A DNA stretch of 64,000 nt, taken from the NCBI RefSeq assembly GCF_058153355.1, contig NZ_CM177019.1; one strand, 5' to 3'. Shown here piece after piece: positions 4,803-55,614 of this stretch. The notes under the pieces are model-generated. The model did no database searches, was not told the origin of the DNA, and was given only the letters and a program-made list of their open reading frames with translations. A program made the translations under genes and the position numbers. Each line of letters begins with the position of its first letter. Position 1 is the first letter of the stretch.

Positions 4803-5007
4803 TATTTCGACGCTGACCTGGCGGACTGCTGCCGCCAGGTCAATATTCTAAAAAACCCTTCGTTTCTAATAACCCTATAATTAATCAACGAAATTATAAT
4901 ATTTCTAAAATTAGAATATAATTTATAAACATTATTTAAATGTTGTTACTTAAGTGTTACCGTTGATGCCGCGCAAATCTCACCTGCAATAAAGCGACTA
5001 AAAGTAA

Positions 5008-19113: not shown

Positions 19114-20162
19114 GGTTTTTATTGGGCGTGCTGATGCTGATGATCTCCGGCTCAGCGCTGGCGACCATCGACGTGTTGCAGTTTAAAGATGAAGCACAGG
19201 AACAACAGTTTCGTCAGCTTACTGAAGAACTGCGCTGCCCGAAATGCCAGAACAACAGCATTGCCGATTCCAACTCGATGATTGCCACCGACCTGCGCCA
19301 GAAAGTGTATGAACTGATGCAGGAAGGTAAAAGTAAGAAAGAGATTGTCGATTATATGGTGGCGCGTTACGGCAACTTCGTCACTTACGACCCGCCGTTA
19401 ACGCCGCTGACCGTTCTGCTGTGGGTGCTACCGGTGGTGGCTATTGGCATTGGCGGTTGGGTCATTTACGCCCGCTCGCGGCGTCGGGTACGCGTGGTGC
19501 CGGAAGCGTTTCCTGAACAAAGCGTGCCGGAAGGTAAGCGTGCCGGATATGTTGTTTATCTGCCGGGTATTGTGGTGGCGTTAATTGTGGCTGGCGTCAG
19601 CTACTACCAGACCGGCAATTATCAGCAGGTGAAAATTTGGCAGCAGGCCACGGCACAGGCGCCGGCGTTATTGGACAGGGCGCTGGATCCGAAAGCTGAG
19701 CCGCTCAACGAAGAAGAGATGTCCCGCCTTGCGCTGGGGATGCGTACTCAACTGCAAAAAAATCCGGGAGATATAGAAGGCTGGATTATGTTGGGCCGCG
19801 TTGGCATGGCGCTGGGTAACGCCAGTATTGCCACCGATGCATACGCCACTGCGTATCGCCTCGATCCGAAGAACAGCGATGCTGCACTCGGATACGCTGA
19901 AGCGTTGACACGTTCATCTGATCCCAACGACAACCGCCTGGGTGGTGAACTGCTACGCCAGTTAGTAAGAAGCGACCACAGCAATATCCGTGTGTTAAGC
20001 ATGTATGCGTTCAATGCCTTTGAGCAGCAGCGATTTGGCGAAGCCGTTGCCGCGTGGGAGATGATGTTGAAACTCTTACCTGCCAACGATACTCGCCGTG
20101 CGGTGATTGAACGCAGTATCGCGCAGGCGATGCAACACTTATCACCACAGGAGAGTAAATAA
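19110..20162 (+). CDS. ccmH: Cytochrome c-type biogenesis protein CcmH (fused CcmH/CcmI type with TPR region)
   Basis: 350-aa ORF; N-terminal LRCPKCQNNS motif, TM segment, TPR-like C-terminus. Confidence 0.9.
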   Translation: MRFLLGVLMLMISGSALATIDVLQFKDEAQEQQFRQLTEELRCPKCQNNSIADSNSMIATDLRQKVYELMQEGKSKKEIVDYMVARYGNFVTYDPPLTPLTVLLWVLPVVAIGIGGWVIYARSRRRVRVVPEAFPEQSVPEGKRAGYVVYLPGIVVALIVAGVSYYQTGNYQQVKIWQQATAQAPALLDRALDPKAEPLNEEEMSRLALGMRTQLQKNPGDIEGWIMLGRVGMALGNASIATDAYATAYRLDPKNSDAALGYAEALTRSSDPNDNRLGGELLRQLVRSDHSNIRVLSMYAFNAFEQQRFGEAVAAWEMMLKLLPANDTRRAVIERSIAQAMQHLSPQESK

Positions 20163-34207: not shown

Positions 34208-35398
34208 GTGACCACCCGACAGCATTCGTCGTTTGCTATTGTTTTTATCCTTGGCCTGCTGGCCATGTTGATGCCGCTGTCGATTGATATGTATCTGCCC
34301 GCGCTACCGGTAATTTCAGCGCAATTTGGCGTACCTGCGGGCAGTACGCAGATGACCCTCAGTACTTATATTCTGGGCTTTGCGTTGGGGCAGTTAATCT
34401 ACGGGCCGATGGCAGACAGTTTCGGGCGTAAGCCGGTGGTTCTTGGCGGTACGCTGGTGTTTGCCGCCGCCGCGGTGGCGTGTGCGTTGGCACAAACCAT
34501 CGATCAGCTGATTGTGATGCGTTTCTTCCACGGTCTGGCTGCGGCTGCGGCCAGCGTGGTTATCAACGCTTTAATGCGTGATATCTACCCGAAGGAAGAG
34601 TTCTCACGGATGATGTCGTTTGTCATGCTGGTGACGACCATTGCACCGCTGATGGCACCGATAGTTGGCGGCTGGGTGCTGGTGTGGCTGAGCTGGCATT
34701 ACATCTTCTGGATCCTCGCCGTAGCGGCGATTCTGGCTTCGGCAATGATCTTCTTTCTGATCAAAGAAACCTTACCACCGGAGCGTCGCCAGCCTTTTCA
34801 CATTCGTACCACTATTGGTAACTTTGCGGCGCTGTTTCGTCATAAGCGTGTCCTGAGTTATATGCTGGCCAGCGGTTTCAGCTTTGCCGGAATGTTCTCG
34901 TTCCTGAGCGCCGGACCGTTTGTCTACATTGAAATTAACCACGTCGCGCCGGAAAACTTTGGTTATTACTTTGCGCTAAACATTGTTTTCCTGTTCGTGA
35001 TGACCATCTTTAACAGTCGCTTCGTCCGCCGTATTGGCGCGTTAAATATGTTCCGCTCGGGGTTGTGGATACAGTTTATTATGGCGGCGTGGATGGTCAT
35101 CAGTGCGCTGCTGGGGCTGGGATTCTGGTCGCTGGTAGTTGGCGTTGCGGCGTTTGTGGGCTGCGTGTCGATGGTGTCATCTAATGCGATGGCGGTCATT
35201 CTTGATGAGTTTCCCCACATGGCGGGAACGGCATCTTCGCTGGCAGGCACCTTCCGTTTTGGTATAGGGGCAATTGTTGGCGCATTGCTTTCTCTTGCGA
35301 CCTTTAACTCTGCATGGCCGATGATTTGGTCAATTGCATTCTGCGCAACCAGCTCCATTCTCTTCTGTCTGTACGCCAGTCGGCCGAAAAAACGGTGA
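34208..35398 (+). CDS. bcr: MFS efflux transporter Bcr (bicyclomycin/multidrug resistance)
   Basis: 396-aa, 12-TM MFS ORF with a GTG start; synteny. Confidence 0.9.
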
Positions 35399-35730
35399 TC
35401 TATTGCACAACGAGGAAGCTAAAAGGCTTCCTTTGTTGATGCATGTCAACCACAAATCCATCATTCCCCCGATATATGTTTATTTTATGTAAAATCAATT
35501 TATGTAAAAAGTCACATCATTGTAGTTAAAAAGGTTGAGTTAGATCGCAGAAACGGGTACATATAGCCCCGCAAACGTGACCACGCCCGCAGATATTATT
35601 TAAATCAGAGCCATAGAGGCCACGCTGGCGAGGCATCAATCTTTACGATCTGTATAAAGACGGATTGTTGATGATGTGTTAAAATTGATGTAAACAAATT
35701 GTGAAGTAAATGTGCTTCCGGGGAAAATAA

Positions 35731-36075
35731 GTGACTTCATTACAACTCTCAATCGTCCATCGACTGCCGCAGAACTATCGCTGGTCTGCTGGTTTCGCAG
35801 GTTCGAAGGTTGAACCGATTCCGCAAAATGGACCGTGCGGTGACAACAGCCTGGTGGCGCTTAAATTGCTTAGCCCGGATGGTGATAATGCATGGTCGGT
35901 GATGTACAAACTAAGCCAGGCGTTAAGCGACATCGAAGTTCCATGCTCGGTACTGGAGTGTGAAGGTGAGCCGTGCCTGTTTGTAAATCGCCAGGACGAG
36001 TTTGCTGCAACATGCCGATTGAAAAATTTTGGTGTGGCAATTGCCGAACCCTTCTCAAACTACAATCCTTTTTAA
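35731..36075 (+). CDS. yejG: Uncharacterized protein YejG
   Basis: 114-aa ORF preceded by a long AT-rich intergenic region; synteny. Confidence 0.8.
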
Positions 36076-47724: not shown

Positions 47725-47946
47725 AGGAGTCACGTCTTAGTAACGATTGATTAACAATGACAGTGTAAAGTTATATGACAGAAATTGAAATTGGTCTGGA
47801 TTGTTAATTCGATGAAGTGTGAGGGCGATCAATGAACTGGTGAATATTACGGGAGAACTATATTCAGGAAGCGAAAAATAGAAGATTGGTATAATAAATT
47901 AAAAAAGGGACAGCCTGAGCTATCCCTTTTCTGCATGCGGCTGAAG

Positions 47947-54292: not shown

Positions 54293-54672
54293 TTTGATGA
54301 GCGCAAAGGGAATGACCAGTTTGTGAATGTAATTTTATGAATTTAAATGGTTTTATCTTTCAGTAGAAACCTGAAATGTTCATCAAACACTAAGGTTATT
54401 TCCTCAAGGGCAGATTATTTTCTGCCCTTTTTAGTGTTCCTGTTCTGTGCATCCAGTCACAAATTCCTCACTTTTGTAATTCAGGCATTTAATCGCATTT
54501 TGTGAGCCTGCTCAAATCTGCCCATTTTGCCTCTCTGGCGGCAATTTACTTTACGTAAAACATGCATACTATGAGCACATGTTTAAATATGAACACATGT
54601 TTAAACCGTCTTTGCAGTATCTATATTCTTGTGGATTGACAGGGTTGGTAATTTTTTACCAGAGGACGTGCT

Positions 54673-55614
54673 ATGCGCGAAAAGGATTATGTCGTAATTA
54701 TAGGCTCGGCGAATATTGATGTCGCCGGATATTCACATGAATCATTAAATTATGCGGATTCAAATCCAGGTAAAATAAAATTTACGCCTGGTGGGGTAGG
54801 GCGCAATATTGCACAAAACCTGGCGTTGCTGGGTAATAAAGCCTGGCTACTGAGCGCCGTAGGCAGTGATTTTTATGGTCAATCGCTGCTAACGCAAACC
54901 AATCAATCTGGCGTTTATGTCGATAAATGCCTGATTGTGCCGGGAGAAAATACGTCGAGCTATTTATCATTACTCGATAATACCGGTGAAATGCTGGTTG
55001 CTATAAATGACATGAATATTAGCAACGCTATTACAGCTGAATATCTCGCACAGCACCGTGAATTTATTCAGAGGGCAAAGGTCATTGTCGCGGACTGTAA
55101 TATCAGTGAAGAGGCACTGGCATGGATTCTGGATAATGCCGCCAACGTACCCGTATTTGTCGATCCTGTTTCTGCGTGGAAATGTGTCAAAGTGCGCGAC
55201 CGTCTAAATCTGATCCACACTCTCAAGCCAAACCGCCTTGAAGCGGAAACCCTGAGTGGGATTGCGTTGTCAGGGCGTGAAGATGTGGCAAAGGTTGCCG
55301 CCTGGTTCCATCAACATGGCCTGAACCGACTGGTATTGAGCATGGGCGGCGACGGCGTTTATTACAGTGATATCAGCGGTGAAAGTGGTTGGTCTGCGCC
55401 GATTAAAACCAATGTCATTAATGTTACCGGAGCGGGCGATGCCATGATGGCGGGACTTGCTTCGTGTTGGGTAGACGGAATGCCGTTTGCCGAATCTGTT
55501 CGTTTCGCACAGGGATGTTCGTCAATGGCGCTCTCCTGTGAATACACCAATAACCCCGATTTATCGATTGCCAACGTTATATCGTTAGTGGAGAACGCAG
55601 AATGTCTGAATTAA
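54673..55614 (+). CDS. psuK: Pseudouridine kinase (PfkB family)
   Basis: 313-aa ORF with ribokinase-family motifs (GGVGRNIA, GAGDAMMAG). Confidence 0.88.
   Translation: MREKDYVVIIGSANIDVAGYSHESLNYADSNPGKIKFTPGGVGRNIAQNLALLGNKAWLLSAVGSDFYGQSLLTQTNQSGVYVDKCLIVPGENTSSYLSLLDNTGEMLVAINDMNISNAITAEYLAQHREFIQRAKVIVADCNISEEALAWILDNAANVPVFVDPVSAWKCVKVRDRLNLIHTLKPNRLEAETLSGIALSGREDVAKVAAWFHQHGLNRLVLSMGGDGVYYSDISGESGWSAPIKTNVINVTGAGDAMMAGLASCWVDGMPFAESVRFAQGCSSMALSCEYTNNPDLSIANVISLVENAECLN

Follow-up and report, generated by a model that had tools for sequence, protein, structure and literature searches.

A direct repeat in the bcr-yejG spacer of Escherichia coli lies within a catalogued distal ArcA binding site

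The stretch of DNA analysed here (64,000 nucleotides of contig NZ_CM177019.1, assembly GCF_058153355.1; hereafter the window) comes from Escherichia coli, and the gene order at the locus of interest is radD, rsuA, bcr, a 332-bp spacer, yejG, and then yejF on the opposite strand (Table 1). The sole family match of YejG is PF13989, whose function is unknown. An earlier note, made from the sequence alone, had drawn attention to a direct repeat some 220 bp before yejG, in the spacer that separates this gene from bcr, and this gene context was borne out, with both copies lying 222 to 247 bp upstream of the GTG start codon at 35731. The same note had called the spacer strongly AT-rich; this is true of two patches (35460-35549 and 35640-35699, each 25 to 28% GC) but not of the spacer as a whole, which has about 50% GC in its middle and 38.3% GC overall, versus 51.4% for the 64-kb window. 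Compared with the K-12 spacer, that of the window has four base differences and no insertions or deletions, and the spacer was found in 5425 of 5426 complete E. coli genomes. Published K-12 positions were converted by means of this spacer alignment (window position = 2,311,990 minus the U00096.2 coordinate). The terminator hairpin that follows bcr sets the bcr transcript apart from the yejG control region, and in an alignment of spacers its stem is preserved in other species despite differing sequences.

Table 1. Positions of genes, promoters, ArcA sites, and repeat copies at the bcr-yejG locus (window coordinates)
Feature	Position	Strand	Details
bcr	34208-35398	+	
bcr terminator hairpin	35413-35432	+	AGGAAGC-TAAAAG-GCTTCCT then TTGTTG; read from sequence
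Palindrome TTGATGCATGTCAA	35436-35449		FNR consensus match; upstream of the repeat and separate from the ArcA site
ArcA-P site yejG2, ATGTTTATTTTATGTAAAATCAATTTATGTA	35476-35506 (U00096.2 2,276,514-2,276,484)	+	PMC3798270; K-12 and window sequence identical
ArcA box ATGTTTATTTTATGTAAA	35476-35493 (18 bp)	+	DR1 + DR2; 18.0 bits here
Conserved distal control block	35477-35567 (91 bp)	+	ArcA box, AAAAAGTCACA, TTGTAGTTAAAAAGG, P2 core; 91.2% mean identity, 78 species
Repeat copy 1, TTTATGTAAAA	35484-35494	+	Core ATGTAAA 35487-35493 = DR2 of the distal ArcA box
Repeat copy 2, TTTATGTAAAA	35499-35509	+	Core ATGTAAA 35502-35508, ArcA half-site-like
Distal promoter P2	35535-35571	+	-35 TTGAGT 35535-35540, 17-bp spacer, -10 TACATA 35558-35563, GCCCC, start 35571
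Proximal ArcA-P site yejG1, four half-sites	35665-35708 (2,276,282-2,276,325)	+	Overlaps P1; PMC3798270
P1 extended -10, TGtTAAAAT	35677-35685	+	Start 35691
yejG	35731-36075	+	GTG start at 35731

The repeated sequence occurs exactly twice in the 64-kb window, both times on the plus strand, and the copies are 15 bp apart from start to start with a 4-bp gap (TCAA) between them, confirming the two-copy direct repeat of period 15 that had been described. When the spacer was shuffled with its dinucleotides preserved, an exact local direct repeat this long (at least 11 nt, period 4 to 30) came up in 20 of 5000 trials; for the AT-rich patch by itself the figure was 9 of 5000, and the entire window holds three. 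The repeat is thus more than a chance occurrence. A near-copy with one mismatch, AATTGATGTAAA, at 35683-35694 is DR3 of the proximal ArcA site yejG1.

In the ArcB/ArcA redox two-component system, ArcA serves as the response regulator and is phosphorylated by ArcB once the quinone pool becomes reduced. ArcA-P, a member of the OmpR/PhoB family, forms dimers that recognise direct repeats, and these act mostly as repressors that occlude sigma70 promoters. In 2013, Park et al. (PMC3798270; PLoS Genet 9:e1003839) reported ArcA ChIP-seq signal in two regions before yejG, named yejG1 and yejG2, and the repeat lies inside the second of these, so that the element is already catalogued, base for base. 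The published yejG2 peak at 2,276,488, whose centre converts to window position 35502, was called in replicate 2 only and not in replicate 1, with an enrichment of 1.9; in vivo occupancy of yejG2 by ArcA is therefore weak but positive. Its box was given as 17.6 bits, with half-sites of 8, 8.5, and 1.4 bits (PMC3798270, Tables S1, S2, and S4), and the 8.5-bit DR2 was placed at 2,276,500 (Table S4). In the window the architecture is ATGTTTA-N4-ATGTAAA, in which the second half-site, DR2 (ATGTAAA, 35487-35493), is the core of copy 1, and the first, DR1 (ATGTTTA, 35476-35482, including TGTTTA at 35477-35482), is found 11 bp upstream of DR2, just outside the coordinates given for the repeat in the earlier note.

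To score this box on an independent footing, we derived an 18-bp matrix from 114 of the ArcA boxes in Park Table S3, from which yejG1 was excluded and in which yejG2 is absent, although the training boxes come from the same study that reported yejG2. On this matrix, 35476-35493 scored 18.0 bits. This exceeds the 75th percentile of the boxes used for training and ranks fifth among the approximately 128,000 positions of the 64-kb window, behind the two yejG1 boxes (18.9 and 19.1 bits) and the known boxes of mqo (4943) and yeiQ (47740). The two halves are TGTTAA-like direct repeats 11 bp apart from centre to centre, and the score exceeds the 9-bit threshold for an ArcA box. The suggestion that the repeat might be a regulator binding site was correct: it lies inside a published ChIP-seq site, with which both the matrix and the conservation tests agree. 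Expression data point the same way. In a K-12 arcA mutant yejG was 11.9-fold up, and anaerobic sigma70 occupancy was lowered, in data in which the distal and proximal sites are inseparable (PMC3798270); Myers et al. recorded a sigma70 ChIP signal at yejG of 1461 under aerobic conditions versus 56 under anaerobic conditions; and in a Salmonella arcA mutant yejG was differentially expressed, with an ArcA box predicted there as well. The main text and footprinting passages of Park et al. contain no footprint of yejG, and in the literature searched we found neither a footprint nor a mutation of yejG2. We consider it probable that the repeat is part of a distal operator through which ArcA-P represses yejG when oxygen is scarce.

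Only one of the two copies fits this operator in the usual way. ArcA half-sites are spaced 11 bp apart. On our own single-half-site matrix the core of copy 2 scored 8.8 bits, equal to the DR2 core. It begins 15 bp after DR2, however, out of the 11-bp phase and on roughly the other side of the helix from where an in-phase site would lie, so the repeat does not consist of the paired halves of a single ArcA dimer site. The unit of two equivalent half-sites 15 bp apart, which the original description of the repeat had implied, is not supported; the ArcA box pairs copy 1 with the TGTTTA upstream of it. Published yejG2 ends at 35506, and its weak DR3 (1.4 bits, at 35497-35506; PMC3798270) is off the copy 2 core; this DR3 element is weak in every species (median of -1.6 bits on our 7-bp half-site matrix, 78 species). 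Farther downstream, the in-phase positions 35498, 35509, and 35520 scored -0.1, 0.7, and 7.6 bits, respectively, the last of these being TTGTAGTTAA, in 11-bp phase with DR1 and DR2; after a further 12-bp step, AGGTTGAGTT at 35532 scored 3.7 bits and overlaps the -35 hexamer of P2. Copy 2 is probably a bend element, a site for a second factor, or both, rather than the canonical partner of copy 1, and its A5 tract adds to the predicted bend.

Conservation was assessed with YejG as the probe, which yielded 80 loci, one per species and mostly from Enterobacteriaceae, of which 78 spacers were aligned; bcr was upstream in nearly all of the fetched loci, and the spacer was again about 330 bp. The earlier note had proposed phylogenetic footprinting, with lack of conservation as the outcome that would speak against a functional repeat, and both copies proved to be conserved in the 78 Enterobacteriaceae. 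Mean identity was 96.7% for copy 1 and 86.9% for copy 2, TGTAAA was kept in both copies in 68 species, and 74 had no indel within 35476-35522, preserving the 15-bp spacing. Within E. coli, the 61 bp around the repeat were 100% identical in 5180 of 5423 genomes. An orthologous ArcA box of at least 10 bits was present in 77 of the 78 species (median, 18.0 bits), DR1 being TGTTTC in about a quarter of species, and the copy 2 core scored at least 6 bits in 86%. The same layout recurs throughout the family: counted back from the start codon, the distal box lies at about 255 to 265 bp and the proximal boxes lie at about 66 and 43 bp. Against codon positions 1, 2, and 3 of yejG (88%, 93%, and 56% identity in the same species), the P2 region is 92.6% conserved, the stretch at 35572-35655 averages 40% identity, and the proximal block at 35665-35708 averages 77.5%. 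The distal operator, although weakly bound, is thus, together with its promoter, more conserved in Enterobacteriaceae than the strongly bound proximal operator.

The relevant transcription starts are known from K-12, where primer extension placed P1 of yejG at 2,276,299 and P2 at 2,276,419 (U00096.2; Chung et al. 2013, PMC3798280), and each has a sigma70 ChIP-seq event, that of P2 at 2,276,432 (PMC3798280). These starts convert to window positions 35691 for P1 and 35571 for P2; the P2 start is thus published, and the assignment of its hexamers is our own reading of the sequence. Relative to the P2 start, yejG2 spans -95 to -65, the box formed by DR1 and DR2 spans -95 to -78, copy 1 spans -87 to -77, and copy 2 spans -72 to -62. 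The promoter relevant to the repeat is thus not a single one about 220 bp away but the distal P2, which starts 62 to 87 bp downstream of the copies. The proximal site yejG1, 190 bp from yejG2 and the stronger of the two, was found in both ChIP-seq replicates (enrichments of 8.2 and 8.5) and has a box of 18.8 bits, the site spanning -26 to +18 of the start (PMC3798270); within it, position 35708 is A in the window versus G in K-12. Simple sigma70 and terminator scans of 35300-35800 missed P1, P2, and the bcr terminator alike. These scans are uninformative here because the P2 -10 is non-canonical (it lacks the final T, which is why the consensus scan missed P2) and P1 depends on an extended -10. 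Shimada et al. predicted a constitutive promoter, TTGATG-17-TATCAT (35436-35464), that K-12 does carry; in the window its -10 is CATCAT, the hexamer is 36 to 82% conserved, and this promoter is unlikely to be the target of the ArcA site.

If ArcA-P does act from the distal site, a dimer would nucleate on DR1 and DR2, and P2 could then be shut off in either of two ways. ArcA-P may spread cooperatively through the weaker elements at 35520 and 35532, the second of which overlaps the -35 hexamer, or else its binding may drive an upstream activator or the alpha subunit of RNA polymerase off the bent, A-tract-rich DNA between -72 and -40. At P1 the block would be direct, through the stronger proximal operator with its four half-sites. 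Because the yejG2 box overlaps neither the -35 nor the -10 hexamer of P2, we infer the repression of P2 from the distal box, and this step is the weak link between binding and repression; most repressing ArcA sites overlap promoter hexamers, according to Park et al. (PMC3798270).

An architectural reading, in which the pair of A/T tracts sets the strength of P2 as part of bent, UP-element-like DNA bound by the C-terminal domains of the RNA polymerase alpha subunits or by a nucleoid protein such as Fis, with ArcA secondary, is possible but falls short of being the likelier account. It is compatible with ArcA control, and of the readings considered it accounts best for copy 2. A wedge model, whose output is indicative only, predicted phased A-tract bending upstream of the -35 hexamer, with 53 degrees per 31 bp centred on 35513 (about -58 of P2), the 99.93rd percentile of the window, and in 96% of the 78 species the bend predicted for the same place reached at least the 95th percentile of the respective locus. 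TTAAAAAGG lies directly upstream of the -35 hexamer, and the G+C-rich stretch between the P2 -10 and the start resembles those of growth-rate-controlled promoters. A predicted FNR site nearby lies under a Fis ChIP-seq signal (Myers et al.). However, the predicted bend peaks downstream of copy 2 and is low around copy 1 (5 to 17 degrees at 35480-35500), A-tracts need no conserved G and yet the GT of both TGTAAA cores is 90 to 99% conserved, and a search by eye for the Fis consensus near the repeat gave no good match. The idea of a curved-DNA promoter, raised in the earlier note, therefore stands insofar as a strong bend is predicted some 58 bp upstream of the mapped P2 start, but as the output of a model, and one that is low at copy 1. 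The hedge between a regulator site and a curved promoter was broadly right and is partly supported.

ArcA accounts for neither the conserved, out-of-phase copy 2 nor the adjacent AAAAAGTCACA. Since ArcA half-sites tolerate wide variation, ArcA alone also fails to explain 91% identity over 91 bp. It is conceivable, if rather unlikely, that 35477-35567 is a composite region read also by a further factor that recognises the TGTAAA of copy 2, the invariant AAAAAGTCACA, and TTGTAG; if so, this would explain why a non-coding stretch is as conserved across the family as codon positions 1 and 2. Such a factor might act together with the conserved FNR-consensus palindrome 60 bp upstream. That palindrome matches TTGAT-N4-ATCAA at 9 of 10 positions and is perfect in most species, and Myers et al. 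predicted the FNR site at 2,276,541 (14.1 bits), where there is no FNR ChIP peak.

One named candidate for a second factor is CRP, which would activate P2 from a class I site, TaTGt-N6-TCACA (35501-35516), of which copy 2 would be the weak left half, in competition with ArcA-P. Judged by the consensus rather than by a matrix, the candidate matches TGTGA-N6-TCACA at 8 of 10 positions and is centred on 35508.5, about -62.5 of P2 and thus at most 1 bp from the classical -61.5. Its right half, GTCACAT, is a perfect half-site conserved at 95 to 100%, so a CRP site would account for the invariant GTCACA; yejG is among the targets predicted by CRP genomic SELEX, in a listing that gives no coordinate, and an ArcA site overlapping a CRP site has a precedent at paaA (Park et al., PMC3798270). 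Against this, the left half matches at 3 of 5 positions, with the critical G and A missing, the spacing deviates by 1 bp, and yejG, b2181, and bcr are absent from two supplementary files of a CRP ChIP-exo study. We regard a CRP site here as unlikely.

Another OmpR/PhoB-family regulator could read the same DNA instead of or alongside ArcA, most obviously PhoP, which would take TGTTTA-N5-TGTAAA as its box, (T/G)GTTTA-N5-(T/G)GTTTA. DR1 matches the PhoP half-site perfectly and the 11-bp period is the right one, and in a Shigella flexneri phoPQ mutant yejG was up 2.7-fold by array and 3.9-fold by quantitative reverse transcription-PCR, an effect that may be indirect. But TGTAAA, the second half, departs from the PhoP half-site at two positions and is a good fit to the ArcA matrix, the TGTTTC found as DR1 in some species hurts PhoP more than ArcA, and the literature searched contained no report of PhoP (or PhoB) binding at yejG2; this reading is very unlikely. 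Further candidates were compared by eye with their consensus sequences and were rejected: CpxR (GTAAA-N5-GTAAA, whereas the spacing here is N10), the TyrR box (mismatched right arm), OmpR (10-bp period, no fit), the IHF core (fails at TTR), sigma54 (wrong GG-GC spacing), DnaA, LexA, NsrR, matS, and NrdR (no fit), and PurR (a half-site only, and in E. coli only).

AT-rich DNA often carries short repeats, and one-mismatch matches to the motif number 4 in the window versus 1.25 expected, a count reached by 4 of 100 shuffles, but a chance repeat without a function of its own is highly improbable: it is contradicted by the conservation data, the copies being 87 to 97% conserved versus 40 to 56% for neutral sites, as well as by the scarcity of such exact repeats in shuffled spacers and by the published ArcA peak centre, which falls on the repeat. 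Least credible of all is a small gene, either a small RNA or the 17-codon open reading frame MFILCKINLCKKSHHCS (35476-35529) that opens with the ATG at 35476 and spans both copies, as the frame ranges from 3 to 42 codons among the 78 species with ATG or TTG as its start, its variable positions have no three-base periodicity, Rfam gave no match above noise (the sole match was a eukaryotic long non-coding RNA model at 18.8 bits versus a threshold of 80), and the mapped starts of P2 and P1 are downstream of the repeat and the bcr terminator is upstream. A conserved RNA structure in the P2 leader (35572-35655) was also considered and rejected, with a z score of 0.10 against shuffles in E. coli, a median of -0.5 over 74 species, and structures that differ. 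By eye, the leaders of E. coli, Salmonella, and Citrobacter amalonaticus appeared to share a long hairpin with different sequences, for which folding gave no support.

Among the 176 ArcA binding regions catalogued in E. coli K-12, this element controls a small protein of unknown function, and its significance beyond cataloguing is small. What the present analysis adds is the phase relation of the repeat, with copy 1 as an ArcA half-site and copy 2 out of phase; the placement of the site with respect to the mapped P2; and the observation that the distal operator, though weakly occupied, belongs to a stretch whose conservation matches that of coding sequence. The yejG control region is thus a sensible system in which to study repression by an upstream ArcA site and to seek a further regulator.

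The closest comparison is with yejG2 as published, whose DNA is identical: it has two strong TGTTAA-like direct repeats on the coding strand at 11-bp spacing, the ArcA-repressed yejG downstream of them, and yejG1 as a further ArcA site within the same spacer. Park et al. treat yejG2 as three half-sites, with the 1.4-bit DR3 at 10-bp spacing, and discuss neither the second strong TGTAAA core at 15 bp nor the position relative to P2 nor the family-wide conservation, all of which were worked out here. In the same study, the dual-operator ArcA promoters of dctA, paaA, trxC, and phoH have, as at yejG, a strong two-half-site nucleus with weaker elements one to several helical turns away. At dctA the ArcA-P footprint extends 50 bp to a second weak site, over an interval in which half-sites are not recognisable; activator sites or a second promoter can also lie within or overlap an ArcA site, as does the CRP site at paaA (PMC3798270). 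At yejG the weaker elements at 35520 and 35532 reach the -35 hexamer of P2; spreading was footprinted at dctA and is what we infer here.

Strong sigma70 promoters of the rrnB P1 type, with its Fis sites, UP elements, and curved DNA upstream, share with P2 an A/T-tract bend, predicted here at -40 to -72, an A-rich stretch at the -35 hexamer, and G+C-rich DNA before the start; they differ in that the -10 of P2, TACATA, is poor and that a Fis site or UP element at yejG is putative. PhoB and PhoP boxes have the same direct-repeat geometry as the distal ArcA box, with an 11-bp period and the related half-site TGTTTA, and it is on a PhoB-DNA structure that Park et al. model how ArcA touches its DNA (PMC3798270).

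Between the distal ArcA box (35476-35493, inside the published site yejG2) and the -35 hexamer of P2, the distal yejG promoter, lie two strongly conserved elements, AAAAAGTCACA and TTGTAG-TTAAAAAGG. Identity across the conserved distal block (35477-35567) is 91%, higher than the 77.5% of the proximal P1 region, which ArcA binds strongly. A single Dam site, GATC, is located in the P2 spacer at 35543-35546; it is approximately 91 to 96% conserved across species and forms part of the distal block.

Sigma32 has been located close to P2, within 35524-35538, in two independent reports: genomic SELEX with RpoH holoenzyme gave a peak at 2,276,452 (window position 35538), and sigma32 ChIP-chip gave a weak signal at 2,276,466 (window position 35524). 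More than one sigma factor may read P2.

Upstream of the distal ArcA box is a palindrome matching the FNR consensus. It is a perfect TTGAT-N4-ATCAA in most of the 78 enterobacterial species whose bcr-yejG spacers were aligned, with key positions 83 to 97% conserved. Among the FNR sites predicted by Myers et al. (2013) it has a high score (14.1 bits) but no ChIP peak, and they mark it as covered by a Fis ChIP-seq signal; the site is conserved across species, yet in vivo occupancy is absent. Shimada et al. also predicted a constitutive promoter in this spacer, with the K-12 sequence TTGATG-17-TATCAT. The -10 hexamer is CATCAT in this strain versus TATCAT in K-12, a change at 35459 that is one of only four differences between the two spacers.

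In two of the loci fetched with YejG as the probe, those of Salmonella enterica subsp. diarizonae (L006) and arizonae (L022), an extra ~45 to 60 bp is found between the bcr stop codon and the terminator, and because of this insert their bcr-yejG spacers reach 378 to 394 bp. The insert contains a long inverted repeat (e.g., GTGTCCCTCAA...TTGAGGGAC) and resembles a small palindromic insertion, of the REP type or of another kind.

Sequence features in and beyond the bcr-yejG spacer (window coordinates)
Feature	Sequence	Coordinates	Strand	Remarks
FNR-type palindrome	TTGATGCATGTCAA	35436-35449		FNR consensus match 9/10
Conserved element	AAAAAGTCACA	within 35506-35534		95-100% conserved
Conserved element	TTGTAG-TTAAAAAGG	within 35506-35534		78-100% conserved
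Exact direct repeat, x2	CACATGTTTAAA	54576-54605		18-bp period
Exact direct repeat, x2	AAGCGTGCCGGA	19520-19547		16-bp period
ArcA box	TTGTTACTTAAGTGTTAC	4943-4960	+	21.1 bits; identical to published mqo box, which was in training set
ArcA box	TTGTTAATCAATCGTTAC	47740-47757	-	18.7 bits; one base off published yeiQ box, which was in training set

The CACATGTTTAAA pair is one of just three exact local repeats in the window that reach 11 nt or more. This pair lies ~70 bp upstream of a 313-codon open reading frame (54673-55614) and close to a predicted curvature peak at 54522, and may be an operator.

When the whole window was scored with the matrix of published ArcA boxes (Park et al. 2013), the two best scores outside yejG fell on the mqo and yeiQ boxes, so that more than one member of the ArcA regulon, indeed several, lie in this window.
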